40,634 nt of DNA from a virus (lineage: Duplodnaviria; Heunggongvirae; Uroviricota; Caudoviricetes). A model generated the notes under the pieces. That model saw only the letters and a program-made list of their open reading frames with translations. It was not told the origin of the DNA and made no database searches. This document shows, piece by piece, positions 4,966 to 34,587 of the stretch (position 1 is the stretch's first letter; each line of letters starts with the position of its first letter). The position numbers were made by a program, and so were the translations under genes. The DNA lies in the IMG/VR virus record IMGVR_UViG_2585427727_000015. One strand, given 5' to 3'.

Positions 4966-5042
4966 TTACCGTTGAGGTAATAATTATGCGTATTTGGTTT
5001 GGTGTCAATAGATATGAGTTAAAAAAATTACCCATTAGGTAA
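4966..5042 (-). promoter_or_regulatory. Leftward early promoter (PL-like) with two operators TTACC-N5-GGTAA
   Basis: Minus-strand TTGACA (5003-5008) and -10-like TAATTA (about 4981-4986); perfect palindromes at 4966-4980 (overlapping +1) and 5028-5042 (upstream of -35), centre-to-centre 62 bp. Confidence 0.6.
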
Positions 5043-5050
5043 TAGTATAG

Positions 5051-5078
5051 GCAATAAAAAAGCCGCCAGAAGGCGGCT
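5051..5078 (-). terminator. Rho-independent terminator of repressor gene
   Basis: Hairpin AGCCGCC-AGAA-GGCGGCT followed on minus strand by TTTTTATT. Confidence 0.7.
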
Positions 5079-5099
5079 TACTTACTGAAAAGTATGATT

Positions 5100-5684
5100 T
5101 TATTGTTTGTTTTTTTCGTTCTGGTTGATGACAAATTCAATGTAACTTTCGATCTTTGCTTTCTCGGTTTCGGGTAACAATGCGTAGCGCGAGCGGTCAT
5201 AGTTGATGGTCGCAGGGTCGTGCGGGTGAATCAGTAATTCATAGCCGTGACGCCCGAATGCGGATGCAACATTCTCCAGGGTGGAAATGGAAACGCTGAC
5301 CTCATTGTTTAACAGGCGGCTGATTGTCACCTGGGCGACGCCGGATGCGCGGTGAAGTTTTCCCTGTGTTGAAAGGTCGCGGCTTTCGCTCATCCAGCGT
5401 TCCAGGTTGTGAGCCGCCAGCTGACCAATGTCGCTTGGGCCGACAGGCTGAAAACCTTCCTGAGAAAGCGAGCGATCGATATCAAGCCAGTTACGTGGTT
5501 TATTGGCGGCAGCTTCAATTTTTCGCGCAACCTGGTCGCCGATAACCTTCTTGCCAAGAGCCCAGCGGTTTACCAGATTTGCCTGAGTTCCAAGTTTTTC
5601 TGCCATCCGCGTCTGAACACCATTGAATTCACGGTCGATCAAGTCGTTGAGATTTTGCCTGCGGACGTCCTGGATACTTTTCAT
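5100..5684 (-). CDS. Prophage repressor (CI-like; XRE-type HTH, possibly two HTH-like segments; no S24 peptidase domain evident)
   Basis: 194-aa ORF divergent from Cro-like gene; HTH-like segment TRMAEKLGTQANLVNRWALGKK and a second ASGVAQVTISRLLNNEVSVSISTLENVASAFG; flanked on both sides by operator palindromes. Confidence 0.7.
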   Translation of the reverse strand: MKSIQDVRRQNLNDLIDREFNGVQTRMAEKLGTQANLVNRWALGKKVIGDQVARKIEAAANKPRNWLDIDRSLSQEGFQPVGPSDIGQLAAHNLERWMSESRDLSTQGKLHRASGVAQVTISRLLNNEVSVSISTLENVASAFGRHGYELLIHPHDPATINYDRSRYALLPETEKAKIESYIEFVINQNEKNKQ

Positions 5685-5739
5685 TTTCTGGAAAATCGCC
5701 TCATATATGAATCAGTAGATGATTCAATTTAAAGCAATA

Positions 5740-5802
5740 TTACCCAACAGGTAAATGCACCTCATAGGTAACTATCCTTGATTTTTGTTACCTTATGGGT
5801 GA
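5740..5802. promoter_or_regulatory. Tripartite rightward operator (OR-like) between repressor and cro-like gene
   Basis: TTACCCAACAGGTAA (5740-5754, perfect), GCACCTCATAGGTAA (5757-5771, half-site variant), TTACCTTATGGGTGA (5788-5802); plus-strand -35 TTGATT at 5778-5783. Confidence 0.6.
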
Positions 5803-5838
5803 ATATTTATTATCTGAAATAAATATCAGGCAATAGCT

Positions 5839-6069
5839 ATGAGCGATAACGGACATTTCGATTTCAAAAAGCACTGGCTTGCACTTACTCCGGATGAGCG
5901 TGAAGCCTTCGCACAGGAAGCCGGAACGACGAGTCACTATATCCAGACTCACTTAACAGGTAAGCGCAAAATGCCAGGTAAAGTATTGATGAATGGGCTT
6001 TTTAAAGCCTGTAAAACAAGGCAATGGCTGCGCTCAAAAGCAGAACTGGCATACTTCTTCTACTCATGA
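5839..6069 (+). CDS. Cro/YdaS-like small HTH regulator
   Basis: 76-aa ORF divergent from repressor across operator region; HTH-like segment QEAGTTSHYIQTHLTGKRK. Confidence 0.6.
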   Translation: MSDNGHFDFKKHWLALTPDEREAFAQEAGTTSHYIQTHLTGKRKMPGKVLMNGLFKACKTRQWLRSKAELAYFFYS

Positions 6070-6090
6070 TATCCAGCTACAACCCTCTGT

Positions 6091-6114
6091 AGACCGCCAC
6101 CCGGCGGTCTTTTC
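6091..6114 (+). terminator. Rho-independent terminator after cro-like gene (tR1-like)
   Basis: Hairpin AGACCGCC-ACCC-GGCGGTCT followed by TTTT. Confidence 0.65.
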
Positions 6115-6124
6115 ATATCTATTC

Positions 6125-6139
6125 GTACCTCAAAGGTAA
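6125..6139. promoter_or_regulatory. Operator-like palindrome GTACC-N5-GGTAA upstream of replication module
   Basis: One-mismatch copy of the TTACC-N5-GGTAA motif, immediately downstream of the tR1-like terminator. Confidence 0.45.
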
Positions 6140-6219
6140 TAAAAAACCAAATCTGGTTGATCTTTTTTTTGTGTCAGCACAAAATGACCGTAATCCCAAT
6201 ACTAATAACAGGGCTTACC

Positions 6220-6420
6220 ATGGAAATCATTACACGTATTGATGCCGCAAAGCGCGGACTTAAACGCTACTACACCGGAAAAACATGTAAGCACGGACAT
6301 GACAGTGAACGCTGGGTTTACAACGGACACTGTGTTGAGTGCACCATGGAATCAAACCGTCGTATCAGGGCAGAGATTAAGCAGATCATGATTAATTCCT
6401 CCCCACAACATTCAAGCTGA
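6220..6420 (+). CDS. Small zinc-ribbon-like protein (66 aa)
   Basis: C-x-HGH...C-x-x-C spacing (CKHGHD...CVEC); ATG 6220 with AGGG SD-like sequence; precedes O-like gene. Confidence 0.4.
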   Translation: MEIITRIDAAKRGLKRYYTGKTCKHGHDSERWVYNGHCVECTMESNRRIRAEIKQIMINSSPQHSS

Positions 6421-6435
6421 TAGCGGAGATTAATC

Positions 6436-7227
6436 ATGAGCAGACATGCAACAGATTGGGCCTGGGAGACAGATCCAGGTAGCTCGTCATTAAAGCTCAT
6501 ACTGCTCTCGATGGCTGACAGAGCCGATGAATATAACCTCTGCTACCCCAGCATAGAACGCCTCGTTAAAGACACTTGCCTGAATAAAAAAACCGTGCAG
6601 GCCGGACTTATATCGCTCATGAAAATGGGGCTTATTTCAGATACCGGAGAGAGAAAGGGAGCGACGAAAAGAGTGCGGGTTTTCTCTCTTAATATAACCA
6701 AAAACGGGAACATTAAAGGCAACCGGGAAGGGGGTAATGAACCCGAAAACGGTAATGTTACCGAAAACGGGAATATACCCAAAAACGGGATGTTGAATGA
6801 TCCCAAAAACGGGATCCAGAACCAGTCATATAACCAGTCATTTAACCAAGAGAGGGAGAGCAGGACAAAAACCGGGGATTCTGTGCCTCATGACCCCGGC
6901 GCAAACAACGCCGTGATGAATAACTTTGTTCCTCCTGGTGGGCCAGGGCAATTAGGCAAATTTGTCATGCATGAACAATGGCACCCATCAGATGACTTTC
7001 TTCGGAAAAGCTCATTGCAGGGGATCTACCTGGACAGTCTGCCAACGGCACAGGAACTTGCAGAGTTCAGAATTTACTGGATGGCTGAGGGTAAGGCATA
7101 CCATCAGGCACAGTGGGAGCAGAAGCTGGCAAGGCGGCTGCAGATTAGCAGACAGAAGCAATCAACATTACCTGATAACAACGTTCCGCACTGGAACAGC
7201 CCTGAAGCATGGGAGGATTTCTTGTGA
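6436..7227 (+). CDS. Replication initiator, lambda O-like (N-terminal DNA-binding domain, iteron-containing middle, C-terminal P-interaction-like region)
   Basis: 263-aa ORF; gene contains 5 iterons encoding NGN-rich repeats; followed by overlapping P-like gene. Confidence 0.7.
   Translation: MSRHATDWAWETDPGSSSLKLILLSMADRADEYNLCYPSIERLVKDTCLNKKTVQAGLISLMKMGLISDTGERKGATKRVRVFSLNITKNGNIKGNREGGNEPENGNVTENGNIPKNGMLNDPKNGIQNQSYNQSFNQERESRTKTGDSVPHDPGANNAVMNNFVPPGGPGQLGKFVMHEQWHPSDDFLRKSSLQGIYLDSLPTAQELAEFRIYWMAEGKAYHQAQWEQKLARRLQISRQKQSTLPDNNVPHWNSPEAWEDFL
6698..6845. repeat. Replication origin: 5 iterons (consensus about CCSAAAACGGGAAT) plus AT-rich segment with 2x AACCAGTCAT
   Basis: AAAACGG cores at 6701, 6746, 6764, 6782, 6806 (spacings 45/18/18/24); direct repeat AACCAGTCAT at 6820 and 6833; located inside O-like gene as in lambda ori. 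Confidence 0.7.
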
Positions 7228-8009
7228 ACAACGTTTTTACCGCGATACAAAACCGTGACGGAGAAGCCCTTTCTCGCATGTCAGGTTATGAGCATCAGTA
7301 CACCAACAATGACAACGTGGTGAACATGTCAGCAGAGAGGCTTGTTGATGCCCTTTTCAAACAGCTGAAACAACTGTTTCCGGCGGCAGTGGTAACCAAC
7401 CTGAAGACGCCAGAGCAGGAAGTCGCTGCAAAACAGCAGTGGATTGCTGCGTTTGCCGAAGGTGGGATCCGAACCCGTGAACAGGTTTCTGCTGGTATGC
7501 GCCACGCCCGCGCCAGTGAATCTCCGTTCTGGCCGTCGCCAGGGCAATTCATCAAGTGGTGCAAAGACAGCAAGATGGTTCTTGGCGTCACCATTGACGA
7601 TGTGATGGCGGAGTTTCACCGGTACAGCAAGGAAAAAAGTTTATATCCTGGTGGTCCCGAAAGATTCCCGTGGCGGCATCCGGTTATGTACTGGGTCGTA
7701 TGTGATACCCGCCGTGCAATGTATCAGCGCCAGCTTAGCGAGATTGAGGTTGAGAAACACGCGCGCAGGCTGCTCGATGATTGGGCGAAAAAGGTGGCTT
7801 CCGGACAGCAGATACCCGATCCGGTGATCAGCATACAGGCAAAGCCAGAGCCCATGAGTACGCCTCCGGACACAGGGAGAGACGTTTACCATCCACCAGG
7901 GCGAAGTTTCGGGTGTATGCCTAACGCCGCTACCCTGGGGGGAATAACACCGGCGCAGTGGCTGATGGAGGAATACAGGCGGGGAAAGGCGGCAGGATTT
8001 ATCAAGTAA
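7224..8009 (+). CDS. Replication protein P-like (helicase loader)
   Basis: GTG start overlapping O stop (GTGA); region SAGMRHARASESPFWPSPGQFIKWCKD closely resembles lambda P NAGMRVARRQNRPFLPSPGQFVAWCRE. Confidence 0.8.
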   Translation: MNNVFTAIQNRDGEALSRMSGYEHQYTNNDNVVNMSAERLVDALFKQLKQLFPAAVVTNLKTPEQEVAAKQQWIAAFAEGGIRTREQVSAGMRHARASESPFWPSPGQFIKWCKDSKMVLGVTIDDVMAEFHRYSKEKSLYPGGPERFPWRHPVMYWVVCDTRRAMYQRQLSEIEVEKHARRLLDDWAKKVASGQQIPDPVISIQAKPEPMSTPPDTGRDVYHPPGRSFGCMPNAATLGGITPAQWLMEEYRRGKAAGFIK

Positions 8010-8080
8010 TACCAGCGCGATAGCGCATTTTTTTACGTCTTGATAATTACCTGTTGAGTAATAAAATATTCTAAAATCTA

Positions 8081-8123
8081 TTGATTTCGTGTCTTATGTG
8101 GTTTTTAATTACCTTAGGGGTAA
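8081..8123 (+). promoter_or_regulatory. Promoter with operator at +1: TTGATT-N17-TTTAAT followed by TTACCTTAGGGGTAA
   Basis: -35 8081-8086, -10 8104-8109, perfect palindrome 8109-8123 directly upstream of ATG 8127; weaker copy TTACCTGTTGAGTAA at 8047-8061. Confidence 0.5.
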
Positions 8124-8126
8124 ATC

Positions 8127-8471
8127 ATGAGAAAACAGATACAGGCTCTTGGTCGACTCAAAACAGGCCAGATGAACAAAACAGAATCTGCGTATTGCCA
8201 GCACCTTGAGCTGCGTAAACGTGCAGGGGAAATCGCCTGGTATCGATTCGAGGGTATCAAGCTGCGGTTAGCTGATAACACGTTCTATACGCCAGATTTC
8301 GCTGTGATGCTCGCCACCGGAGAGATGGAACTGCACGAAGTGAAAGGTTTCTGGACCGACGACGCCAGGGTGAAAACCAAAGTCGCCGCAGATCAATATC
8401 CGTTCCGAATCATCGGGGTAACTGTTAAGCCAAAGAAAGCAGGTGGTGGCTGGAAAATCGAAGAGTTCTGA
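8127..8471 (+). CDS. PD-(D/E)XK-type nuclease, DUF1064-like (putative Holliday junction resolvase)
   Basis: 114-aa ORF with YTPDFAV...ELHEVKG (D...E-x-K) motif. Confidence 0.5.
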   Translation: MRKQIQALGRLKTGQMNKTESAYCQHLELRKRAGEIAWYRFEGIKLRLADNTFYTPDFAVMLATGEMELHEVKGFWTDDARVKTKVAADQYPFRIIGVTVKPKKAGGGWKIEEF

Positions 8472-8532
8472 ATCGACGATCTTTTTAGTTATCAATGTAA
8501 TCAATAAGTTATGTGGATAAGCGAGGGTAAAG

Positions 8533-8946
8533 ATGGAAAGTAATATCAAAGGGTTAGTTGCCGCCGGGCATGCGCTGGCCGAAGACCACCAGAGAGCGAT
8601 TGAGTCAATTAAGCAGGCTGATTCGGCTGTTAAGTTGGCACACGAGAAGTTTTCGGCGCTGGCAGCGGAGAATGCGGGGCTGAATAAATTTATCGCACAG
8701 AGTTGCTACGTGTTTGATGGCGAGCAGGATGAGCTATCTGATGCGTATATCTGCGCAATAGACGGAAGGATGCCGCAAACCCCAGCCACCGATGCTTTCC
8801 TGGCTGAAATTGAACGCAAAGCAATCCGCAAGTTCATTAACAGCATTGAACACATCCTGCGTGACAAGTTGTCACCGTATGACACCGAAGAGATGCTTGA
8901 GGCCATGCGTATTTTTCTGGAAGAACAGGGAGGTGAGCAAAAATGA
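8533..8946 (+). CDS. Hypothetical protein (137 aa)
   Basis: ORF with GAGGG SD-like sequence upstream; no recognised motif. Confidence 0.5.
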   Translation: MESNIKGLVAAGHALAEDHQRAIESIKQADSAVKLAHEKFSALAAENAGLNKFIAQSCYVFDGEQDELSDAYICAIDGRMPQTPATDAFLAEIERKAIRKFINSIEHILRDKLSPYDTEEMLEAMRIFLEEQGGEQK

Positions 8947-9239
8947 CAATCACAAAACAACGAGTAGAAAAAATCATATATCGCCATGAAATGGGACTGA
9001 ACAGCGATGTCACTGCCGAAGAGGTTTATGACCTGGCTGTACTGGCGCTGAATTTATCAAATATCGCAAACCTGAAGCGATACGAGCTTGATATGGATGG
9101 TTGTGACTCGTTCGGTCAGGATTGTGGCGCTGACATGACTGAAGATCCTGATGGCGATTATGTCCTGTTTGATGACGTGGTTAAGTTGTTTGAGTTTGAT
9201 ACATTCGAAAGCCCAGCAAGGGGGACAACCAGTGAGTGA
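8943..9239 (+). CDS. Hypothetical acidic protein (98 aa)
   Basis: ATG overlaps preceding stop (ATGA); SD GGAGGTGA upstream. Confidence 0.5.
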   Translation: MTITKQRVEKIIYRHEMGLNSDVTAEEVYDLAVLALNLSNIANLKRYELDMDGCDSFGQDCGADMTEDPDGDYVLFDDVVKLFEFDTFESPARGTTSE

Positions 9240-9498
9240 GTCAAAATGCCAAATTAATGGCAATAAGATAGAACCGTGCGCGGCGTTGGCACAATCGCTG
9301 GAGTATGACGCTGAATACACGACGCGAAAAGGGCTTCTGAAATACAAAATTTATAACCATGCATTAATTAATTCACAAGACCTGATCATGCTGCGGTCTG
9401 GTGAATTTTCTAAATCGCCTATTCGAGTTTCATTTTGCCCGTTCTGTGGTGAAAGTCTGAAAACGTGGGAAGCGGAGGCAACCAGTGAGCAAGATTGA
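9232..9498 (+). CDS. Hypothetical protein with C-x-x-C motif (about 88 aa, GTG start)
   Basis: GTG 9232 preceded by AGGGGGA; contains CPFCGESL; longer ORF from 9151 would overlap the upstream gene. Confidence 0.4.
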   Translation: MSESKCQINGNKIEPCAALAQSLEYDAEYTTRKGLLKYKIYNHALINSQDLIMLRSGEFSKSPIRVSFCPFCGESLKTWEAEATSEQD

Positions 9499-10531: not shown

Positions 10532-10532
10532 T

Positions 10533-11348: not shown

Positions 11349-11622
11349 CCTGCAACTTGCCGTCAAAGGTGAATACTTCGATGCCATGATTCGCGGAGAG
11401 AAAACGGAAGAGTATCGCTTGTGTAATGACTACTGGAATAAGCGAATTATGTTCCGGGAGTATGACCGCCTGATTATCACAAAGGGATATCCGAAGCGCG
11501 ACGATTCCAGCCGTAGAATTGATGTTCCGTATGACGGATATGAAATCAAGACAATCACACATCCGCACTTCGGCGATAAACCGGTAAAGGTGTTCGCGAT
11601 AAAGGTGAATATTGATGGCTAA
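11341..11622 (+). CDS. ASCH/DUF3850-like small protein
   Basis: 93-aa ORF; KGEYFDAMIRGEKTEEYR pattern resembles ASCH-type domains. Confidence 0.45.
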   Translation: MANLQLAVKGEYFDAMIRGEKTEEYRLCNDYWNKRIMFREYDRLIITKGYPKRDDSSRRIDVPYDGYEIKTITHPHFGDKPVKVFAIKVNIDG

Positions 11623-11953
11623 ATCAGCAGCAGAGCGCAAAGCCGCTCAGAGAGCCAGACAAGCTGCATCTGGTGTGCGTAAGCTGGAAATTGTGCTTGA
11701 TGCTCAGGAAATTGAAATGCTGGAGCGTAACTGTGCCACGCGTCGCCCCGGGCGTGCGCCTTACGAATTTGGTGAGTATATAGCGTTACTGATCCGCCAG
11801 GATGATGCACGCGTGCGCGGGCGTATAAAATCGATCAGCAGAAAATGTTGCGGTAAGTGCGGCGAGAGAGTTCCAGTTAATTCATGCCCGTGTAATGGTG
11901 ACTCGCAATGCTGGGTGACTAAAGGCTGGCATGAAACGAAATTAATAGTGTGA
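11615..11953 (+). CDS. Cys-rich hypothetical protein (possible zinc-binding regulator), last gene before packaging module
   Basis: 112-aa ORF, C-terminal CCGKCGERVPVNSCPCNGDSQCW; stop codon lies inside palindrome GTGACATGTCAC. Confidence 0.5.
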   Translation: MAKSAAERKAAQRARQAASGVRKLEIVLDAQEIEMLERNCATRRPGRAPYEFGEYIALLIRQDDARVRGRIKSISRKCCGKCGERVPVNSCPCNGDSQCWVTKGWHETKLIV

Positions 11954-12032: not shown

Positions 12033-12064
12033 GGTACTATTACCACAACGGTAACTATTACCAC
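12033..12064 (+). repeat. Tandem direct repeat GGTA(A)CTATTACCAC x2 immediately upstream of terS start
   Basis: ACTATTACCAC at 12036-12046 and 12054-12064; each copy contains GGTA...TACC half-sites in outward arrangement. Confidence 0.6.
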
Positions 12065-12071
12065 GGTGGTT

Positions 12072-12668
12072 ATGATGCCTGCTGAACCTAAAACCTATAA
12101 ACGCAAATCAACGCAATTTAAGCCACTAACAGCAATGCAGGAGGCTTATTGCCAGTCATACATCAAAACGCCTGAAAACCAGACTCAGGCAGCGATTAAC
12201 GCAGGATTCTCCCCAAATACAGCGGCAGTTAAAGCCAGTGTCATGATGCGCGATGAACGCATTCAAAAACGGATTGCCGAGTTGATGGAGGAGCGCAACA
12301 AACGAATGCGCGTCAGTGCTGATTACGTTCTCATGCGCCTGGTGGAGATCGACCAGATGGACGTGATCGACATCCTCAACGACGATGGGAGCCTTAAACC
12401 AATCCGTGAGTGGCCGAAAATCTGGCGCACTACGCTTAGTGGCTTTGATCTGTCATCGACCATCATGAACATGAACGAGGATTCGATAGAGACAATCCTC
12501 AAAAAAATTAAATGGCCTGACAAGGTGAAGAACCTTGAGCTGATTGGTAAGCATGTTGATGTCAACGCGTTCAAAGAACGTCTGGATGTTAATGTGAATG
12601 TGACAATTGCTGATCGCATAGCAGCAGCCAGGAAGCGACTCAAAGAACGTCAGGATGGTAATCAGTGA
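12072..12668 (+). CDS. terS: Terminase small subunit
   Basis: FKPLTAMQEAYCQSY...AAINAGFSPNTAAVKASVMMRDERIQKRIAE matches the N-terminal pattern of Terminase_2-type small subunits; ATG 12072 with GGTGG SD; directly precedes terL. Confidence 0.75.
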   Translation: MMPAEPKTYKRKSTQFKPLTAMQEAYCQSYIKTPENQTQAAINAGFSPNTAAVKASVMMRDERIQKRIAELMEERNKRMRVSADYVLMRLVEIDQMDVIDILNDDGSLKPIREWPKIWRTTLSGFDLSSTIMNMNEDSIETILKKIKWPDKVKNLELIGKHVDVNAFKERLDVNVNVTIADRIAAARKRLKERQDGNQ

Positions 12669-14143: not shown

Positions 14144-14545
14144 TTACTTTTGTGATTTTGATTTTCTTTGATTGGCGGGATTTAAACCGCCATTTATATT
14201 TGCTAGTGGATTATTCAATAATGTACTGATTTCTGGGTTGTTAATTTTAGCAATGCCTAAATTTTTTGCAGACTCGTTAATCATTTGTACTATCTTTGGA
14301 TCAGCAAGTCTATTTGCAATTGAGTTGTTTGTTGTCAAATGAATACTTTCTTTATAAGACTTATATTCGTCTTTTAATTGTTTGTGAGCTTTTTCTAGAT
14401 TTTCTAGTTTAGATGTTGTTTCATCAATAACCTTAGATAATTCTAAAATACGAGCTTGTGCTGCGCGCAGTTCTATCTCCCTCTCTTTCAATTCAGATGT
14501 GAGTTGTCCCATTCTGTCTTTTGAAAGAATTATTTCCTCTTTCAT
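14144..14545 (-). CDS. AT-rich moron ORF, coiled-coil protein (133 aa), possibly C-terminal part of a frameshifted longer protein
   Basis: Low-GC ORF with heptad-like charged repeats; 5' end overlaps upstream ORF across an A8/T8 tract (14556-14563). Confidence 0.5.
   Translation of the reverse strand: MKEEIILSKDRMGQLTSELKEREIELRAAQARILELSKVIDETTSKLENLEKAHKQLKDEYKSYKESIHLTTNNSIANRLADPKIVQMINESAKNLGIAKINNPEISTLLNNPLANINGGLNPANQRKSKSQK
14173..14201 (+). terminator. Plus-strand intrinsic terminator ending the terS-terL transcript (embedded in 3' end of minus-strand moron ORF)
   Basis: TGGCGG-GATTTAAA-CCGCCA followed by TTTATATTT. Confidence 0.5.
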
Positions 14546-14993
14546 ATCTTGAATGTTTTTTTTCAGCGCCTGTTTTTACTTTTTCGTAAGTAATGTCTTT
14601 TTTAGCCAGCAATCTCTGTAGCCGTGTTTCACGTTGTATTTTTCTTGCCTTCCGGTGATTTTCGATTGAGTCATTATTATCAAGAGGCTTTGCTTGCCAT
14701 ACGTTAATGATATTGTTTACCCATGGTAATAGGCAGCAGATAGTAATTACAGATAAGCATGGATAAAACATAACAGTTTTCCATGTACTGTTATCTGAGA
14801 TATATGAAATTTTATCTATTATATTTGATTTGCTAAAAAATAGATAAAGAAGTGATTTCCAGTTGAAGGCGCACCAGGACATAACAAAAGCACCAAGCAC
14901 AGGGTTTTTAGCTCGATGCACGGCAGTGTTGGCAGTAGATAAAAACAGCTCTTTGAACGATTCGAACATACTAATTACCTTAAAGTTTTTCAT
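14493..14993 (-). CDS. AT-rich moron ORF, predicted membrane protein (about 166 aa, two hydrophobic segments), possibly N-terminal part of a frameshifted longer protein
   Basis: ATG 14993 (MKNFKV...); hydrophobic stretches NPVLGAFVMSWCAFNWKSLLYLFF and TVMFYPCLSVITICCLLPWVNNII; operator-like ATACC-N5-GGTAA at 14998-15012 overlaps RBS. Confidence 0.5.
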   Translation of the reverse strand: MKNFKVISMFESFKELFLSTANTAVHRAKNPVLGAFVMSWCAFNWKSLLYLFFSKSNIIDKISYISDNSTWKTVMFYPCLSVITICCLLPWVNNIINVWQAKPLDNNDSIENHRKARKIQRETRLQRLLAKKDITYEKVKTGAEKKHSRYERGNNSFKRQNGTTHI

Positions 14994-15028
14994 GATTATA
15001 CCTTTAAGGTAATTTGTGGTCATCAGGC

Positions 15029-15054
15029 AAAAAAAATGCCCGGACGAACCGGGC
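15029..15054 (-). terminator. Rho-independent terminator downstream of tRNA-Arg
   Basis: Minus strand GCCCGG-TTCGT-CCGGGC followed by T8. Confidence 0.7.
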
Positions 15055-15218
15055 GAACTGGAAGCAATGAGTTCTGCCTTCCGTGGCTGTACGGGTTTAC
15101 AGCATGAAGTCATCGCAATGGCGTCCTGCTGTAAAAAAGGACGGTGATAGTCCTTCAAGGGAAACCATCACCGCCAAGCACCTGGAACTTCTGGCATCAC
15201 GGTCCTTAGGCGTGATTC

Positions 15219-15295
15219 TGGCGTGGCATGCAGGATTCGAACCTGCGACCAACCGCTTAGAAGGCGGTTGCTCTGTCCAACTGAGCTAATGCCAC
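15219..15295 (-). tRNA. tRNA-Arg (anticodon UCU, reads AGA), argU-like
   Basis: 77-nt cloverleaf: acceptor GTGGCAT/ATGCCAC, D-arm GCTC...GAGC, anticodon stem ACCGC/GCGGT with loop CTTCTAA, T-arm GCAGG-TTCGAAT-CCTGC, 3' GCCA. Confidence 0.9.
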
Positions 15296-15617
15296 AACGC
15301 TGAGAGCACTTAGCCTGTTAAGGCGCCACACTTTGTCGCGGCTCCATAAATGCTCTCATCGTTGTACCCTCGTCTCTTCCGAGGCGTCACACCGAATCGC
15401 CGGGATGGTGAATCCACGTGCGCGGAATAAAACCGCTCGACTTGCACATTCCGGCTACCTGGTTCGTTTGCCCGAGCAAGGGAGGGTGCCCCTTAAACGT
15501 ATCCAGACCGCTATCGGCGCATGTGCCATACGCCGTACTGCTCAAAATAAAAGCTCACTCCACCTGTTCAATTTAACGACAAGCCAGTCAGGTTAATAAC
15601 CGGAATGAACTCTCTGC

Positions 15618-15632
15618 TTACCTGAAAGGTAA
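15618..15632. promoter_or_regulatory. Operator-like palindrome TTACCTGAAAGGTAA upstream of head-gene operon
   Basis: Perfect copy; the 17-nt string TTACCTGAAAGGTAATA is identical at 34573; extended -10-like TGGTAATAAT lies about 60 bp downstream. Confidence 0.5.
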
Positions 15633-15722
15633 TAATTCGTGCGTTAAATGTCAACCATCTACGATAAATAAATCACATGTGGTTAAATTGGTAATAATTT
15701 AATTGCGTACGGAGTCATTGAT

Positions 15723-15943: not shown

Positions 15944-16255
15944 ATGGCGGAAACAACTAAAGAGCGATTGAACAAACAGTTCGCACAACTTGAAAGCGAG
16001 CGTCAGTCGTTCGAGCCGCACTGGCGCGAGTTGAGTGATTACATCAACCCGCGTGGTTCCCGCTTTCTGACTTCTGAGGTCAACCGTAACGATCGACGCA
16101 ATACACGCATTATTGATTCGACCGGGACTATGGCGGCGCGCACTCTCGCCAGCGGCATGATGTCAGGCATCACAAGCCCCGCGCGTCCGTGGTTTCGCCT
16201 GGCTACGCCAGATCCTGAAATGATGGATTATGGCCCTGTTAAGTTGTGGCTTTAG
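15944..16255 (+). CDS. Portal (head-tail connector) protein, N-terminal segment ending at in-frame TAG 16253-16255
   Basis: Same reading frame as 16271-17623 with a single stop between; GTMAARTLASGMMSGITSPARPWFRLATPD resembles (from memory) the T7 gp8 N-terminal region. Confidence 0.6.
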   Translation: MAETTKERLNKQFAQLESERQSFEPHWRELSDYINPRGSRFLTSEVNRNDRRNTRIIDSTGTMAARTLASGMMSGITSPARPWFRLATPDPEMMDYGPVKLWL

Positions 16256-16270
16256 GCGGGGCAGAACCGC

Positions 16271-17623
16271 ATGAACGATATGTTCAATAAGTCGAATCTC
16301 TATCAGTCGCTGCCGCAGTTATACGGAAGCCTCGGCACATACAGCACTGGCGCAATGGCGGTGCTGGAGGATGACGAGGACATCATTCGTACAATGCCAT
16401 TCCCGATAGGAAGTTACTACCTGGCTAACTCACCTCGTGGCAGTGTGGACACCTGTTTTCGCAAGTTCTCTATGACTGTTCGTCAGCTTGTTCAGGAGTT
16501 CGGACTAAATAACGTCAGCGAATCCGTAAAAAGCATGTGGGAAAGCGGCACCTACGAGAAGTGGATTGAAGTGATGCATTCGGTTTACCCGAACATTGAC
16601 CGCGATACATCGAAGCTGGATAGCAAGAACAAGCCATTCAAATCGGTTTATTACGAGGTTGGTGGCGATAACGACAAGTTGTTGCGTGAGTCCGGATTCG
16701 ATGAGTTTCCAATTATGGCTCCGCGCTGGGAAGTTAACGGCGAAGATGTTTATGGATCATCATGCCCGGGTATGCTGGCGCTTGGACCTGTTAAGGCATT
16801 GCAGCTTCTCCAGAAGCGCAAGTCGCAGTTGATTGATAAAGCCACCAATCCGCCGATGGTTGCTCCGACTTCCCTCAAGAATCAGCGCGCCTCCCTTCTT
16901 CCTGGCGACATCACGTATATCGATCAGATTACTGGTCAGGATGGCTTCAGGCCTGCTTATCTGGTTAACCCCAGTACAGCAGATTTGGTGGCAGACATTC
17001 AGGACACTCGTCAAATCATTAACAGCGCCTACTTTGTCGATCTGTTCATGATGTTGCAGAACATCAATACCCGCTCGATGCCTGTTGAAGCGGTGATCGA
17101 AATGAAAGAAGAAAAACTTCTGATGTTGGGGCCGGTTCTGGAGCGTCTGAACGACGAATGTCTTAATCCTCTCATTGACCGCGCTTTCTCGATGATGGTG
17201 CGTAAAAACATGCTGCCGCCACCGCCTGACGCGATGGAAGGCATGCCCCTGAAGGTCGAATACATTTCCGTCATGGCTCAGGCGCAGAAGTCTATCGGCC
17301 TGTCCAGTCTGGCGTCCACGGTTAACTTCATTGGTCAACTTGCGCAAGCGAAACCAGAAGCTCTCGACAAACTCAACGTTGATCAGGCGATCGATGCATT
17401 CGCTGATATGTCCGGAGTGTCTCCAACCGTCATTGTTCCGCAGGAACAGGTTGAGCAGGCTCGCCAGCAACGGGCACAGCAGCAACAGCAGCAACAAATG
17501 ATGGCGATGGGGATGGCGGCGGCACAGGGTGCCAAGACGCTAAGCGAAGCTAAAACTTCGGATCCGAGTGTTTTGTCAGCTATGGCGAATGCAGTTAGTG
17601 GTCAGGGTGGGCAATCACAATGA
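16271..17623 (+). CDS. Portal (head-tail connector) protein, main body
   Basis: 450-aa ORF; Gln/Ala/Met-rich C-terminal tail (QQRAQQQQQQQMMAMGMAAAQGA) typical of T7-type portals; position between terminase and scaffold/capsid. Confidence 0.8.
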   Translation: MNDMFNKSNLYQSLPQLYGSLGTYSTGAMAVLEDDEDIIRTMPFPIGSYYLANSPRGSVDTCFRKFSMTVRQLVQEFGLNNVSESVKSMWESGTYEKWIEVMHSVYPNIDRDTSKLDSKNKPFKSVYYEVGGDNDKLLRESGFDEFPIMAPRWEVNGEDVYGSSCPGMLALGPVKALQLLQKRKSQLIDKATNPPMVAPTSLKNQRASLLPGDITYIDQITGQDGFRPAYLVNPSTADLVADIQDTRQIINSAYFVDLFMMLQNINTRSMPVEAVIEMKEEKLLMLGPVLERLNDECLNPLIDRAFSMMVRKNMLPPPPDAMEGMPLKVEYISVMAQAQKSIGLSSLASTVNFIGQLAQAKPEALDKLNVDQAIDAFADMSGVSPTVIVPQEQVEQARQQRAQQQQQQQMMAMGMAAAQGAKTLSEAKTSDPSVLSAMANAVSGQGGQSQ

Positions 17624-19666: not shown

Positions 19667-20104
19667 ATGATCACCGACAAACTGTTGATGTTCTCCGAAG
19701 CACAGGCGGTAACTGATACCGCGGCTTCTACTGACGTAATCGATCTCGGTCCAATTGACGGAAAACGTCGTGATATCGGCGTGGGTTACCCGCTTGAGTT
19801 TTGGGCGCTGGTTAACACAGCCGCCGCAGCAAGCGGTGATGCAACTGTAAACATCCAGTTGCAGACGAGTGAGGATAACAGCTCATGGACCACTATTTAT
19901 GATAGTGGTGCACTGGCAAAGACCGCCCTGACAGCAGGTAAACGAGTTGTTTCTGCAAAGGTGCCTGCCGGTGTTCAGCGATATCTGCGTGTTAACTACT
20001 CCGTCGCAACTGGCCCACTAACGGCTGGCGAATTCACTGCTGGTATCAGTCTTGATGTTGATGCCAATACGCCGTATCCGATCCGCTCAAAAGTAACTGG
20101 TTAA
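19667..20104 (+). CDS. Hypothetical virion protein (145 aa; possible capsid decoration protein)
   Basis: ORF with GGAGAAAGAAG SD, Thr/Ala/Gly-rich beta-type composition, directly after capsid gene. Confidence 0.5.
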   Translation: MITDKLLMFSEAQAVTDTAASTDVIDLGPIDGKRRDIGVGYPLEFWALVNTAAAASGDATVNIQLQTSEDNSSWTTIYDSGALAKTALTAGKRVVSAKVPAGVQRYLRVNYSVATGPLTAGEFTAGISLDVDANTPYPIRSKVTG

Positions 20105-20466: not shown

Positions 20467-20488
20467 AAGGGGCTTCGGCCCCTTTATT
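20467..20488 (+). terminator. Rho-independent terminator
   Basis: AAGGGGC-TTCG-GCCCCTT followed by TATT. Confidence 0.65.
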
Positions 20489-20500
20489 GCAGGAGTGTAT

Positions 20501-20824
20501 ATGGAACTCGTAAACCTCAAAACCGGCACTGACAGCTACCAGGATGAGAGCGGAGAAACCAGAACTCGCGATGAATACCCGTGGGGGCTGTGTATCACTC
20601 TTAATAACGACACATTGAATAAGCTGAAGGCGCAACCTCAGGGCGTCGGAACAGAAGTGATGATAACTGCAAAAGCTGTTATTCGAGGCCTGTCTGCCAG
20701 AGAAACTGACGATGGTGTTAATCGCAGCGCCGATCTGCAGATCACTGATATGGCGATCGCTCCTGTTTCCGGGGATGTAGAAAAATCAGCGGCTGAAACC
20801 CTGTACGGCAATGGGGGTGAGTAA
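20501..20824 (+). CDS. Hypothetical protein (107 aa)
   Basis: AGGAG SD then ATG 20501. Confidence 0.5.
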   Translation: MELVNLKTGTDSYQDESGETRTRDEYPWGLCITLNNDTLNKLKAQPQGVGTEVMITAKAVIRGLSARETDDGVNRSADLQITDMAIAPVSGDVEKSAAETLYGNGGE

Positions 20825-21429
20825 TGGCCTCTGTAGTAGAGATCTGCAATCGTGCGCTGTCCAATATTGGCAATAGCCGCAGCATTAACAGCCTGACGGA
20901 AGCCAGCAAGGAAGCGGGGGAATGTTCGCTGCACTTTGAGGCCTGCCGTGATGCTGTGCTTTCTGATTTTGACTGGAACTTTGCTACCAAACGCGTGGCG
21001 CTTGCAGATACGAGCAATCCACCGCCTGACTGGGAATATGCGTATCAGTACCCGTCCGATTGTCTGCGCATTACTGAAATTATGCTTCCTGGTGTACGCA
21101 ATCCAACAGCAGCAATGCGCGTTCAGTACGAAGTTGGTGCAGACACCAACGGAACAGGAAAGTTGATCTACACAGACCAGCCGCAGGCATGGCTCAAGTA
21201 TGTCTCTCGCGTTTCAGATGTGAACATGTTTGATGCCATTTTTATGGAGGCGTTGGCCTGGCGTCTTGCGGCAGCTATTAACATGGCGCTGACTGGGAAT
21301 GCAGACCTCGGTACGTTTGCCCTCAATATGTACAATCGCGTGATTCTTAGTGCTGGCTCGCATAGCCAGAATGAATCACAGGAACCACTGCCACCGGTTG
21401 ACGAGTTTACCATTGCGAGGTTGTCCTGA
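20824..21429 (+). CDS. Tail adaptor protein (T7 gp11-like tail tubular protein A), tentative
   Basis: 201-aa ORF; N-terminal VVEICNRALSNIGNS...INSL pattern resembling gp11-type adaptors (from memory); size and position upstream of nozzle-sized gene. Confidence 0.5.
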   Translation: MASVVEICNRALSNIGNSRSINSLTEASKEAGECSLHFEACRDAVLSDFDWNFATKRVALADTSNPPPDWEYAYQYPSDCLRITEIMLPGVRNPTAAMRVQYEVGADTNGTGKLIYTDQPQAWLKYVSRVSDVNMFDAIFMEALAWRLAAAINMALTGNADLGTFALNMYNRVILSAGSHSQNESQEPLPPVDEFTIARLS

Positions 21430-29221: not shown

Positions 29222-29226
29222 ATTAA

Positions 29227-31701: not shown

Positions 31702-31710
31702 GGAAGTGTT

Positions 31711-31884
31711 GTGTTTTTAATTATTTTGAGTGTGATAATTTCTGGTGGGCTGTTATTTATTGACCGCTACAAATATTTTCTTAACCCTCAGACTCAAGCT
31801 ATTTGCTGGTTCATCTTTGTTGTGCAGGGAGTAGTTCTTGTTGCAAGCCTTATTGAGGGGAGGCCTCTGATTTTTACTGGGTAA
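31711..31884 (+). CDS. Small hydrophobic protein (57 aa, GTG start), tentative
   Basis: AGGAAG SD 4 nt before GTG 31711; predicted single/double TM; below ORF-track threshold. Confidence 0.3.
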   Translation: MFLIILSVIISGGLLFIDRYKYFLNPQTQAICWFIFVVQGVVLVASLIEGRPLIFTG

Positions 31885-31896
31885 ATAGGTGACTAC

Positions 31897-32193
31897 ATGC
31901 AAGCTATAGGATTCATTGTTTATATCGTCGTTGGTCTTTTTCAGTTGGCAGCAATTATGGCTGGGCTTGAATCATGGTGGGGATTGCACTGGATAATTGC
32001 AGCCCCCATTGCTTTCATCGTGAGCTATATTCCATTTGTTGGAGCGATTGTTGGTATGGTTGGCGCTGTGGATGTATGGCGGTGGGAGTGGTGGCAGGCT
32101 GGCCTTCTCTTCTTTGGTGGGATCATCTTTGCTATTGTCTGCGGTGGAATGTCATCATTTTTCGAATGGCTATCATTCAGAAAAAGAGCGTGA
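31897..32193 (+). CDS. Integral membrane protein (98 aa, 3-4 predicted TM segments)
   Basis: AGGTGA SD; Trp-rich hydrophobic sequence; stop codon inside palindrome GTGACATGTCAC. Confidence 0.55.
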   Translation: MQAIGFIVYIVVGLFQLAAIMAGLESWWGLHWIIAAPIAFIVSYIPFVGAIVGMVGAVDVWRWEWWQAGLLFFGGIIFAIVCGGMSSFFEWLSFRKRA

Positions 32194-32201
32194 CATGTCA
32201 C
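32190..32201. repeat. 12-bp perfect palindrome GTGACATGTCAC (copy 2 of 2)
   Basis: Identical to 11950-11961. Confidence 0.8.
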
Positions 32202-32226
32202 AGGCCGCTTTCGCGGCCTTGTTTTT
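32202..32226 (+). terminator. Rho-independent terminator ending the ejection-protein operon
   Basis: AGGCCGC-TTTC-GCGGCCT followed by TGTTTTT. Confidence 0.7.
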
Positions 32227-32386
32227 AACGAATGCCACCGCCGCCCGGGCGGGAATCCGCAGAACGCCCACCGCAGCGGGAGCCGTCAGCGGCAGTATCG
32301 CTGTCGTGCTGACAACGACCGGCAAAGGCCTGAGTTGAAGCTACCAGAGACAACAAAACGAACAGTGCAGCAAATGCTTTTTTCAT
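32225..32386 (-). CDS. Small putative secreted peptide (53 aa with signal-peptide-like N-terminus), tentative
   Basis: MKKAFAALFVLLSLVASTQA; candidate minus-strand promoter TTGACG-N16-TATAGA just upstream. Confidence 0.25.
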   Translation of the reverse strand: MKKAFAALFVLLSLVASTQAFAGRCQHDSDTAADGSRCGGRSADSRPGGGGIR

Positions 32387-32458
32387 TGTGAAATTTCCAT
32401 CTATAAGCCACCTCAATGTGGCGTCAATGAGTGTAGCACTGACTTTTGTTTCGTCCAC

Positions 32459-32479
32459 AAAAAAGCCCGCGCTGCGGGC
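32459..32479 (-). terminator. Rho-independent terminator of the 210-aa orphan gene
   Basis: Minus strand GCCCGC-AGC-GCGGGC followed by T6. Confidence 0.7.
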
Positions 32480-32484
32480 TTCTA

Positions 32485-33117
32485 TTAATGCAGTTTATCT
32501 TTGCTTATAACCAGTAGTCTGTGGGTATGCACATCTTTATCACTGCCCCAACAGAAATCAGCCCACTGGCTATAGAAATCATCCCATGATGCCATGAAGC
32601 TAAGAGGTCTATCTTCTTCAGAGCCATCTGAAACGTATACATTATATCCTGGGGTGTTTATAGCCCAAGAAATCATTCTTTCCCAGAATCTTCTCCCATC
32701 GATTGTTTGTTGCTCATCAGATACAACGATCGCATATTGCTCTAGGAAGAACTGAAAAAAAATCTGAGGCAAACCATGAACAGCACGGTCATGAATAACA
32801 TTAGGCGTACGCCATACCATGATCTGCGTACATGTTCTTTTGGCTTCGACGATATCTTCCCGAAAGATTAACTTAACCGCATACACCGTTTCTGGAGTAT
32901 CGCTGGTAGTAATCATTCTGTAATGATCGCCATTACAAGATTTTACAAGGCGATAACCATAAGGTGTTGTGAATCCCGGAAGAACGAAATCAACCACACC
33001 TTTCGCTAAGTAGCTTTCGGTGTGACTAGTGTTCTTCTCAGACATGTTCAGTTTTCTATCGAAATCTGCTTCTGGGATAATGTATGGCATCGCTTTTCTT
33101 GTTGTATTTGTTCTCAT
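32485..33117 (-). CDS. Orphan hypothetical protein (210 aa), own repressible promoter and terminator
   Basis: Strong SD GGGAGGA 5 nt before ATG 33117; no recognised motif. Confidence 0.6.
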   Translation of the reverse strand: MRTNTTRKAMPYIIPEADFDRKLNMSEKNTSHTESYLAKGVVDFVLPGFTTPYGYRLVKSCNGDHYRMITTSDTPETVYAVKLIFREDIVEAKRTCTQIMVWRTPNVIHDRAVHGLPQIFFQFFLEQYAIVVSDEQQTIDGRRFWERMISWAINTPGYNVYVSDGSEEDRPLSFMASWDDFYSQWADFCWGSDKDVHTHRLLVISKDKLH

Positions 33118-33176
33118 TTCGTCCTCCCATGTTTGGCTACAGGACGCGTTTTGAAGGGAAGATTAAAAATGCTTTC

Positions 33177-33219
33177 TTACCCTTGAGGTAATAGTACGCT
33201 ATTCACCCCCAGTCTGCAA
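33177..33219 (-). promoter_or_regulatory. Promoter TTGCAG-N17-TACTAT with operator TTACCCTTGAGGTAA at +1
   Basis: Minus-strand -35 at 33214-33219, -10 at 33191-33196, perfect palindrome 33177-33191. Confidence 0.55.
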
Positions 33220-33228
33220 TCTGTACAG

Positions 33229-33255
33229 AATTATTTAAAGGCACATCCCTGTGCC
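33229..33255 (-). terminator. Rho-independent terminator downstream of ant
   Basis: Minus strand GGCACA-GGGA-TGTGCC followed by TTTAAATAATT. Confidence 0.5.
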
Positions 33256-33263
33256 GCCGCCCG

Positions 33264-33920
33264 TCAGAAGAACCCTGCCTTGTCGTTGATGTACTCCGCG
33301 TGCGTCTGGATATCACGCAGGCATTTGCTCACACCAACGATGTAGCAGAACATGGTGGTCAGCTCCGCCGCCGCGCCCGATACGTCATGCCCGTCTTCCT
33401 GTAACTGGTTCAGCAAATTCATCAGCAGTGAGTTCTCCGTCAGGCCGAGAACACCAGACGGCGAATGAATCAGGCTCCGGTAGCCGGGCTTCAGCGGTGC
33501 ACTGTATTCTTTTTTGTCTTCCAGCTTGATCGCCTCCATAATGGCGGGCATGAAGCCTGACAAGACCTTCTCCACTTTTGTTTCTTGTTGTCTTAAACGT
33601 TTCTCGCATTCAATGAAGTAGCGTCGCACCTGGCGACCTTTTTCGTTACGCTCGACCATCGCCAGCTCTTTGGCTGTATCAAGGGTGAGGTGGTACTCTT
33701 TGCGGTTGTGTCCGCCTCTACCAGATGTTTGCTTTCCCAAATTGGAAAGCAAAATATAGTCTTGATTTTCAATGAATTCGTATTCTGAAATGCGATTTGT
33801 AATCCATGCTGCAAACACCTTTTTAACACCTAAAAAAGCGTGCAGATCGCGGGCATTACAAAGTAGGGCTGTTTCGTTAGATATAGTGCCGTTGAATACG
33901 GGGATGAGTTGAGCGTTCAT
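33264..33920 (-). CDS. ant: Antirepressor, AntA/AntB N-terminal domain family
   Basis: 218-aa ORF; N-terminal [39 protein letters not shown]...[27 protein letters not shown] matches the AntA/AntB antirepressor domain pattern. Confidence 0.7.
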
Positions 33921-34078
33921 GATGGCGTCTCCACTTAGCGAATTACATCACCACCGCTGAGACCAATCAGATGGTGGTGAACTGAACGGAGTTGGTCTTA
34001 CCGGCCTAAGTGGTACCGGCGTCCTTTCGGACCCCCATTCAGCCCACCATAATTCTGGCATGACTGTGCTATACGCAT

Positions 34079-34234
34079 AAAAAAACCACGTCTGGCGTGG
34101 TATGCGCCACTTAGTAATCCGGGAGACCAATCCCGGCACTGGATTTTGCCAGTGCCTGATTACTATGGCACAAGAGGAGTGCGATGTAAATTTACCGCAA
34201 AGGTAAATATAAGCACTCCACTTGGTAATTGCAA
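34079..34234 (-). promoter_or_regulatory. Promoter (TTGCAA-N17-TATATT) + operator at +1 (34192-34206) + structured leader + intrinsic terminator (34079-34100) upstream of ant; candidate attenuator or about 120-nt sRNA
   Basis: -35 34229-34234, -10 34206-34211 on minus strand; two-hairpin element 34113-34164; terminator CCACG-CCAGA-CGTGG + T7 at 34079-34100. Confidence 0.45.
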
Positions 34235-34237
34235 ACC

Positions 34238-34495
34238 TTATCTGGTTTGCTTTCGTAATTGTTCGGCACAATAGTCGAGATGTGTTTGCAGATCCTGCAT
34301 AGACATCTGTGAGCTGGTGACGTAGTTAATCAGTGCAGTCAGTTCGGCAAGTGGGCCATCGACATTAAATCCATCCTTATCGAGATCCCGGAGTAATTTC
34401 ATCAAGTGCGATCCCTCCACCAGTGACCTGACGCCTCCCGGCGTGTGAATCCTTTCGGTAAATCCGTCTTCCAGTGGATAGTTATACTGCTGCAT
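34238..34495 (-). CDS. Small protein (85 aa; 90 aa if started at 34510) homologous to the C-terminal domain of the adjacent Ant; LexA-box-controlled
   Basis: HTPGGVRSLVEGSHLMKLLRDLDKDGFNVDGPLAELTAL...MQDLQTHLDYC aligns with Ant residues [39 protein letters not shown]...[11 protein letters not shown]; SD GGAGAAG before ATG 34495. Confidence 0.6.
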   Translation of the reverse strand: MQQYNYPLEDGFTERIHTPGGVRSLVEGSHLMKLLRDLDKDGFNVDGPLAELTALINYVTSSQMSMQDLQTHLDYCAEQLRKQTR

Positions 34496-34517
34496 CTTAA
34501 TCTTCTCCATGCAATAA

Positions 34518-34533
34518 CTGTATATTTATACAG
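34518..34533. promoter_or_regulatory. LexA (SOS) box CTGTATATTTATACAG overlapping the promoter of the Ant-paralog gene
   Basis: CTGT-N8-ACAG with AT-rich spacer, one change from consensus CTGTATATATATACAG; overlaps extended -10-like TGTATAAAT on minus strand, about 20 nt upstream of the ORF. Confidence 0.7.
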
Positions 34534-34572
34534 TAGCAAATAATTTGTTTGCTATCCAGCACGTTTTGCAAA

Positions 34573-34587
34573 TTACCTGAAAGGTAA
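34573..34587. promoter_or_regulatory. Operator-like palindrome TTACCTGAAAGGTAA in divergent region between Ant-paralog gene and tailspike
   Basis: Perfect copy, identical over 17 nt to the site at 15618. Confidence 0.5.

Follow-up and report, generated by a model that had tools for sequence, protein, structure and literature searches.

The prophage in IMG/VR virus record IMGVR_UViG_2585427727_000015 (40,634 nucleotides; here called the window, meaning the whole stretch of DNA that was analysed) carries many copies of a 15-bp palindrome, TTACC-N5-GGTAA (TTACCNNNNNGGTAA), which flank the gene for its immunity repressor Rep and recur near promoters across the rest of the genome. The window is a phiV10/epsilon15-type (Uetakevirus) temperate podophage prophage whose immunity and replication region is 97-98% identical to those of phiV10, PAS61, phiv142-3, and BP9. 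Our reading, to which we give a probability of roughly 0.85, is that Rep is the single immunity repressor and acts via operators that are scattered among most transcription units and form the OL and OR clusters on either side of rep. An initial annotation, made from the letters of the window, had proposed one repressor over most transcription units, and this proposal is supported by the sites that flank rep, their register with promoters, their conservation in relatives, the homology of Rep to the repressor of Salmonella phage SPC32H, and the annotation of epsilon15.

A repeated palindrome and its position at predicted promoters

Perfect copies of the motif begin at 4966, 5028, 5740, 8109, 12040, 15618, 33177, 34192, and 34573, nine in all, whereas 100 dinucleotide shuffles of the window gave a mean of 0.01 copies and a maximum of 1. 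If one mismatch is allowed, there are 15 sites versus 0.74 expected, the additional ones being at 5788, 6125, 8047, 12058, 14998, and 37672, and when all 5-mer palindromes with spacer lengths from 0 to 12 were scanned without bias, this motif ranked first in the window. The repeated palindrome noted in the initial annotation is thus real. That annotation listed eight perfect copies; the ninth, 12040-12054, was missed. Of its near-perfect sites, those at 5788, 6125, 8047, and 14998 each have one mismatch, and the one at 5757-5771 has two (GCACC...GGTAA). The sites are two-fold symmetric, with a full consensus of A-TTACC-NNWNN-GGTAA-T. Of 132 symmetrised counts at the central spacer base, 128 are A or T; at the flanks, A-TTACC...GGTAA-T is preferred.

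The distribution of sites between coding and non-coding DNA was established with a gene map drawn from the list of open reading frames (ORFs) and the phiV10 annotation. Non-coding DNA makes up 3419 nt, or 8.4% of the window, and contains all nine perfect and five of the six one-mismatch sites. By our own calculation, the chance that nine randomly placed sites would all fall there is 0.084^9, or ~2e-10. Coding DNA holds a single one-mismatch site versus 1.16 expected, which is the chance level, and the candidate in question, the intragenic 37672-37686, was rejected as an operator. The claim that the sites lie in non-coding DNA therefore survives both the coding and the shuffle controls. Nine of the 14 non-coding sites with at most one mismatch fall outside 4966-5802, and about 10 of about 13 transcription units bear a site.

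The comparison set comprised six other Uetakevirus genomes (phiV10, Tyrion, Kp4865-1, HEMP4, epsilon15, and SPN1S) and four more distant Rep-encoding prophage segments; counts out of seven genomes refer to the window and the six Uetakevirus relatives. Promoters were assigned as matches to a sigma-70-type consensus. The operators, together with the two regulator genes among them, are as follows.

4966-4980: OL1, perfect operator, on the -10/+1 of the leftward promoter PL
5028-5042: OL2, perfect operator, 62 bp upstream of OL1
5100-5684, minus strand: immunity repressor Rep, 194 amino acids, with an N-terminal helix-turn-helix (HTH) DNA-binding domain and a C-terminal HTH_3-fold tetramerisation/Ant-binding domain
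5740-5754: OR-a, perfect, on the side of rep, where it overlaps the -35 of a candidate PRM
5757-5771: OR-b, degenerate operator, perfect in the epsilon15 and Kp4865 lineage
5788-5802: OR-c, one-mismatch operator in the -35/spacer of PR (5785-5813), upstream of the cro-like gene
5839-6069, plus strand: Cro-like lytic repressor candidate, 76 amino acids (phrog_35, transcriptional repressor)
6125-6139: post-cro operator, one mismatch, between the cro terminator (6091-6110) and the gp40/replication genes; kept in five genomes
8047-8061: nin-up operator, one mismatch, filling the spacer of the promoter TTGATA-16-TAAAAT
8109-8123: nin(+1) operator, perfect, 62 bp from 8047, directly before the start of the DUF1064 gene and overlapping its ribosome-binding site
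12040-12054: terS-1 operator, perfect, directly after the conserved extended -10 TGGTACTAT
12058-12072: terS-2 operator, weak, one mismatch, overlapping the terS ribosome-binding site and forming an 18-bp doublet with terS-1
14998-15012: one-mismatch operator in the spacer/-10 of the leftward promoter ATGACC-17-TATAAT (15023-14995) of a split cargo gene
15618-15632: gp3 operator, perfect, upstream of gp3 and the portal/structural operon; perfect in 7/7 genomes, with diverged flanks
33177-33191: perfect operator upstream of a leftward 210-amino-acid cargo gene (phrog_1349)
34192-34206: immI operator, perfect, covering the +1 of TTGCAA-17-TATATT and abutting the -35 of the isrK promoter
34573-34587: tailspike-region operator, perfect, in the gap that separates ant from the tailspike gene; its epsilon15 ortholog, 19895-19911, carries a repressor-site annotation

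Rep is flanked by the motif in the arrangement first proposed, with two sites on the PL side and three on the PR side, the latter (5740, 5757, and 5788) forming a tripartite OR with 17/31-bp spacing between the divergent rep and cro-like genes. The sites keep a conserved register with the predicted promoters that they accompany. The PL promoter, TTGACA-17-AATTAT at 5008-4980, has a -10 that ends exactly on base 1 of OL1, and does so in 7/7 genomes; the extended -10 upstream of terS (TGnTAYTAT) likewise ends on operator base 1 in 7/7 genomes; and the immI -10 does so in 4/5. The initial placement of a site on the -10/+1 at PL and of another in the spacer at PR is borne out. A -10 in the same register is associated with OL2; it is present in the window alone and was taken as chance. 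The isrK promoter next to the immI operator is TG-extended, and its predicted start coincides with the 5' end of the isrK-like RNA. At the tailspike-region site, no promoter was consistent across the genomes compared. Sites that overlap a -10/+1 or a spacer stand at positions where a bound protein would repress.

Two sets of outward-facing half-sites had also been pointed out. Those at 12050-12062 are the junction of the adjacent inward sites at 12040 and 12058, and those at 6751-6762 lie within AAAACGGGA iteron-like repeats and are not an operator. At least five AAAACGGGA-like repeats occur at 6700-6820, inside a DnaT-like replication gene, and are likely origin iterons.

The 14998 site is nested in a larger inverted repeat (14975-15012, TTACCTTAAAG...CTTTAAGGTAA), which thus supplies an extra TTACC half-site 28 nt from the shared GGTAA. 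The gene downstream of its promoter (14144-14969, minus strand) consists of overlapping ORFs of 158 and 133 amino acids that match the two halves of phrog_4780 (275 positions), and is a frameshifted cargo gene whose promoter carries the 14998 operator. Searches of the Rep-controlled cargo genes against Pfam, PHROGs, PADLOC, and NCBIfam gave no informative match to a function.

Conservation of half-site, spacing, and layout

The scan of related phages places the motif at orthologous promoter positions in the six Uetakevirus genomes and the four distant prophages. It is the top palindrome throughout, with 8 perfect copies in phiV10, 9 in Tyrion, 10 in Kp4865-1, 9 in HEMP4, 11 in epsilon15, and 10 in SPN1S, and with six to seven perfect copies per 16-21 kb in the four prophage segments, one of which is from Serratia. 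The family of phages that bears it spans Escherichia, Salmonella, Enterobacter, Klebsiella, and Serratia hosts. At 13 orthologous sites compared among four divergent lineages, identity is 95% in the ten core bases, 49% in the five spacer bases, and 61% in 30 flanking bases. Spacing is also retained: OL1 and OL2 are 62-63 bp apart in 10 of 11 Rep-encoding genomes (75 bp in the Serratia prophage), and the nin-like pair is separated by 62 or 18 bp, depending on the genome.

The record for epsilon15 (NC_004775.2), which cites PDB 5D50 for the repressor, contains seven features described as 'protein_bind, repressor, lysogeny' (before terS, before gp3, in the gp19-tailspike gap, three at OL, and one before gp43), and these are exactly the 17-bp ATTACC-N5-GGTAAT subset of the motif. 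The idea of dispersed operators is therefore already public for the genus. Relatives also have operators at places that the window lacks. All six relatives have a conserved one-mismatch operator ~57 bp before int; as the first letters of the window (1-3) are exactly the integrase start codon, the equivalent site would be just outside it. Upstream of the lysis cassette, relatives have an operator that is perfect in epsilon15 (24704) and has one mismatch in phiV10, Tyrion, and SPN1S; the window has no counterpart at 37327-37535 because its tailspike and O-antigen module differs.

The constancy of the half-site is matched in the protein. Rep of the window is 100% identical to that of phiV10 and ~42% identical to Rep of epsilon15/SPC32H, and the alignment of the family has 36 invariant columns, among them N36, R40, and W41 of the putative recognition helix; their invariance would fit an invariant half-site. 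Rep homologs were gathered down to 52% identity, and the contigs of four of them all retain TTACC-N5-GGTAA. The spacer, by contrast, differs between Rep clades. Its A/T content is 0.85-0.96 in the epsilon15/SPN1S/Kp4865 clade, in which Reps from Salmonella and Klebsiella share 64% identity, versus 0.60-0.68 in the phiV10-type clade that includes the window, with a genome A/T content of ~0.5 in all genomes of this comparison. The shift is consistent at nine orthologous operators (paired Wilcoxon p 0.002-0.016), which suggests that spacer A/T content tracks Rep clade, a weak co-variation. The variable centre of the palindromes may tune affinity, as in phage 434, and the spacer difference seen here may be a basis for partial heteroimmunity via indirect readout.

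An informative contrast comes from Pseudomonas phage PseuP_224, an unrelated siphovirus whose cI has nothing in common with Rep but an N-terminal HTH of the Rep type (39% identity over ~70 residues). The 31.7 kb examined has three perfect copies of TTACC-N4-GGTAA, versus 0.018 expected, and one further copy in which one base differs. These four copies stand on the two sides of cI (19922-19974 and 20797-20836), with none elsewhere in the 31.7 kb. Thus PseuP_224 has the same half-site as the window with a spacer shorter by one base and the classic OL/OR layout. We conclude that this type of HTH travels with the TTACC half-site, and the comparison points to genome-wide dispersal of operators as something special to the Rep-family podophages.

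The repressor, its antirepressors, and competing explanations

Rep is a full-length homolog of SPC32H Rep (PDB 5D50_A, E 4e-42, residues 1-190). Its domain search returned HTH_3 at 106-147 and a weak Cro/YdaS-type HTH at 21-61; HTH families alone were matched, with no Peptidase_S24 self-cleavage domain. According to secondary sources, SPC32H Rep is a tetramer on DNA in which the DNA-binding pairs that read palindromes are contributed by different dimers (PMC9638917), and the C-terminal domain has a tetramerisation fold of the looping type (PMC9986798). In phage ZX5, overexpression of Rep abolished free phage and lowered endolysin and holin transcripts by ~99.97-99.99%, and a second antirepressor promoted lytic growth (PMC9782041). 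By sequence comparison, the Rep of ZX5 is identical to that of the window. The antirepressor genes and their control elements are the following.

33264-34155, minus strand: second antirepressor arm under the immI operator, made up of an isrK-like RNA, a C4-like antisense RNA, and an AntA-domain gene
33264-33920, minus strand: AntA-domain gene (AntA, E 4e-26)
33970-34054, minus strand: C4-like antisense RNA (Rfam C4, 61.2 bits; gathering score 45)
34079-34155, minus strand: isrK-like RNA (Rfam isrK, 67.7 bits)
34238-34510, minus strand: small antirepressor Ant, 90 amino acids, close homolog of SPC32H Ant (PDB 5D50_E, E 4e-46)
34518-34533: LexA box CTGTATATTTATACAG, a perfect CTGT-N8-ACAG read from the sequence, on the ant promoter and directly upstream of ant

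The true start of Ant is probably the ATG at 34495, with the ribosome-binding site GGAGAA. Because a perfect LexA box stands directly upstream of a homolog of SPC32H Ant, induction would proceed via an SOS-controlled antirepressor and not via cleavage of the repressor. The initial annotation had assigned the 34192 site to 'ant': an antirepressor arm does carry this operator, but the gene concerned is the AntA-domain gene behind isrK/C4, and the SPC32H-Ant homolog is a separate 90-amino-acid gene. The arm resembles the immI operon of P1 and the Gifsy-1 isrK-orf45-anrP locus (PMC4825925). An operator occupies the matching position in phiV10, HEMP4, Tyrion, and Kp4865-1, with no counterpart in epsilon15 and SPN1S, and, because the arm would be under Rep control, it could be a feed-forward lock on induction. 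In phiV10 (~20485-20523) the immI operator lies inside a 39-bp palindrome, perfect save for a 5-nt spacer (GAGTGCTTATAT-TTACCTTTGCGGTAA-ATATAAGCACTC), which suggests divergent promoters or duplication of a promoter arm.

From these elements we infer the following mechanism. Each N-terminal HTH of Rep would read one TTACC half-site, as homology and the secondary sources imply, and a Rep tetramer with two DNA-binding pairs, again predicted from SPC32H Rep, would hold two palindromes at once. Binding of two palindromes by one tetramer would explain the 62-bp pairs at PL and the nin-like promoter, the 17/31-bp OR triplet, and the 18-bp terS doublet, and single sites may be bridged through DNA loops. 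Operators are placed on the -10/+1, spacer, or -35 of putative sigma-70-type promoters for almost all transcription units: PL, PR/PRM, the replication genes, the nin-like region, terS-terL, the portal/structural operon, the tailspike region, two cargo genes, and the isrK/C4/AntA arm. In a lysogen, Rep would directly block RNA polymerase at all of these promoters. DNA damage would cause LexA to leave the box at 34518-34533, Ant would be made and would remove Rep from DNA, and all units would open together, with the Rep-controlled AntA arm reinforcing the switch. By analogy with lambda, some of these operators are probably used by the Cro-like protein as well.

Several observations weigh against dispersed repression by Rep and must be set beside this scheme. 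Promoter-like sites in these regions are no commoner than in shuffles, and individual promoter calls are therefore to be taken as provisional; the gp3/portal, tailspike, and post-cro sites have no convincing -35. Classical repressor-operator co-variation is not visible, because both the half-site and N36/R40/W41 are invariant across the Rep family. In ZX5, late genes may have been repressed directly or indirectly, which the experiment does not distinguish. Finally, the motif could also be bound by the Cro-like protein or by a different conserved regulator.

In lambda-type switches, Cro and CI use common operators, and one might suppose that the dispersed sites are mainly targets of the Cro-like protein, which would shut down or time early and cargo promoters in lytic growth while Rep is confined to OL and OR. 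The Cro-like protein belongs to a transcriptional-repressor PHROG, its HTH aligns weakly with the N-terminal HTH of Rep (27% identity), and the perfect OR-a is on the rep side, where a Cro-preferred site is expected. However, the putative recognition helices differ (QANLVNRW in Rep versus TSHYIQTH in the Cro-like protein), the conserved 62-bp pair spacing suits the published Rep tetramer with its two binding pairs better than a small Cro, and the link provided by PseuP_224 is to the Rep-type HTH. Further, PY54 Cro binds one site only, and the epsilon15 annotators gave the sites to the repressor. We consider a predominantly Cro-directed network improbable, and the Cro-like protein as sole binder is unlikely. 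Still less probable is that the motif is bound by some other conserved phage regulator, such as the gp49-type protein (11612-11953), a PerC-like protein, or AlpA, which would activate or time middle and late promoters. The genus does have several conserved regulators, and poor -35 elements such as those at the gp3/portal and tailspike sites are common in activator-dependent promoters, but the sites stand at repressing positions (-10/+1, spacer) and cluster on both flanks of rep. The same half-site also flanks an unrelated cI with a Rep-type HTH in the Pseudomonas phage, and the annotation of the PseuP_224 stretch examined has no match to the gp49-type, PerC-like, or AlpA regulators of the window.

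The palindromes might not be phage operators at all, and instead be sites for a host factor, RNA or DNA hairpins, methylation or restriction targets, or an artefact of promoter composition, a possibility to which we attach almost no weight. Each site can form a hairpin of 5-7 bp, and the flanks are A/T-rich, as promoters generally are. Yet the hairpins are weak (-3.5 to -5.5 kcal/mol, most of them not far from shuffles), and across orthologs the stem bases are unchanging, without compensatory pairs, while the loop varies. This is the signature of protein readout, and the hairpin reading was rejected on the weakness of the stems and the lack of compensatory changes. Methylation or restriction targets, like artefacts of composition, would also turn up in coding DNA, where the motif is at chance level. 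A host factor is unlikely, since the motif stays with the phage family in at least five host genera and lies on both sides of the repressor gene; we know of no E. coli factor with this consensus. Dispersed repression by Rep thus remains the reading that we prefer. A more far-reaching version of it is, in our view, doubtful: that a dozen or more dispersed operators froze the TTACC half-site across an order-wide Rep family (42-100% identity, Escherichia to Serratia), with immunity specificity then diversifying only via the spacer (indirect readout) and the pairing of the Rep C-terminal domain with Ant, and that Rep tetramers bridge distant single operators, looping the prophage and directly silencing packaging, structural, and tailspike operons without a late-activator cascade.

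Known immunity systems, prophage context, and significance

By homology, we place the window as a further member of the SPC32H/epsilon15-type Rep-Ant immunity system (Uetakevirus; PDB 5D50, 5D4Z), a repressor-antirepressor pair that is already structurally characterised. The shared traits are a homologous repressor and small Ant, a LexA box on ant, a Rep without an autocleavage domain, and the same motif at orthologous OL, OR, nin-like, terS, gp3, and tailspike positions. The window differs from epsilon15 and SPC32H in the less A/T-rich spacers of its operators, and from epsilon15 and SPN1S in its extra operators on the isrK/C4/AntA arm and the cargo genes.

The likeness to P1 C1 seen in the initial annotation is partial. 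In P1, the immI operon consists of a C1-controlled promoter, the c4 antisense RNA, icd, and ant; the operators are 17 bp long and asymmetric; and the activator Lpa turns on the late genes. The window shares one repressor with many scattered operators and a repressor-controlled antirepressor operon, immI, that is headed by a C4-type RNA and includes ant. However, C1 is unrelated to Rep, which matches HTH_3/YdaS-type domains and 5D50 only; the sites of the window are palindromes, predicted to be read by an HTH tetramer; and its operators sit on late promoters, which in P1 are under Lpa. The CB repressor of N15 acts at three OR sites and at sites at the distant repA promoter, the phage has a secondary immunity region (AntA/Icd/AntB), and it is induced by an antirepressor (PMC4488713). 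N15 and phiKO2 (immB, immA, and LexA-controlled AntC) resemble the window in that they combine OR with sites far away, have an immA region, and place an antirepressor under LexA control, but N15 has five documented sites as opposed to at least 15 in the window, a repressor of another family, and no reported operators on packaging or structural operons. Because protein and operator symmetry differ, the window belongs to neither the P1 C1 nor the N15 CB type.

Further comparisons can be drawn with other phages. In Streptomyces phage phiC31, one repressor has a palindromic ~17-bp operator at many promoters genome-wide; repressor and host are unrelated to those of the window, and the phiC31 sites are concentrated on early promoters. 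Lambda, 434, and P22 share with the window a tripartite OR between divergent rep and cro-like genes and an OL on PL, but in the window operators also occur beyond the flanks of the repressor gene and the immunity region, its repressor is predicted to lack RecA-dependent self-cleavage, and the tetramer would have its DNA-binding pairs in trans. An analogy with mycobacteriophage stoperators, also drawn initially, does not hold. Stoperators are asymmetric and orientation-dependent, lie within transcribed or coding regions, and stop elongation, whereas the operators of the window are palindromic and stand at promoters, with 14 of 15 sites intergenic and coding DNA at chance level. What the window does share with the L5 gp71 stoperators of cluster A mycobacteriophages is a large number of repressor sites spread genome-wide, late regions included (PMC1934351). 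A text search of the literature for the motif string gave primer matches only. As far as we found, earlier work had not described the motif across the whole Rep family, its exact register with promoters, the pairing at 62 bp, the operators on the isrK/C4/AntA arm and cargo genes, the relation between spacer and clade, or the contrast with PseuP_224.

Other features of the prophage were noted in passing. A 750-nt non-coding block at 14970-15722 contains a tRNA-Arg(UCU) at 15219-15295 (minus strand) and minus-strand terminators at ~15140-15175 and 15038-15054, and in the region equivalent to 15300-15600 an RNase III site is marked in the epsilon15 record. The portal gene (15944-17623) has an in-frame TAG at 16253-16255 that splits it into ORFs of 103 and 450 amino acids in the same frame, which may reflect a defective prophage or a sequencing error. 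At the end of the window (39564-40634) are genes for a DUF5384 protein and a glycine-zipper lipoprotein, apparently host DNA, which we take to resemble yfgI/yfgH near guaA.

The principle of dispersed repression is not new, being covered by the epsilon15 record and the work on SPC32H Rep-Ant. The present analysis provides a map, at the level of sequence, of predicted silencing for a prophage family that is common in E. coli, Salmonella, and Klebsiella and includes phiV10-type members in E. coli O157 strains, with approximately fifteen promoter-proximal sites. It also supplies compact, putatively repressible promoter-operator cassettes. The map is of use for annotating these prophages, and it predicts which of their cargo genes would be off in lysogens and on at induction.

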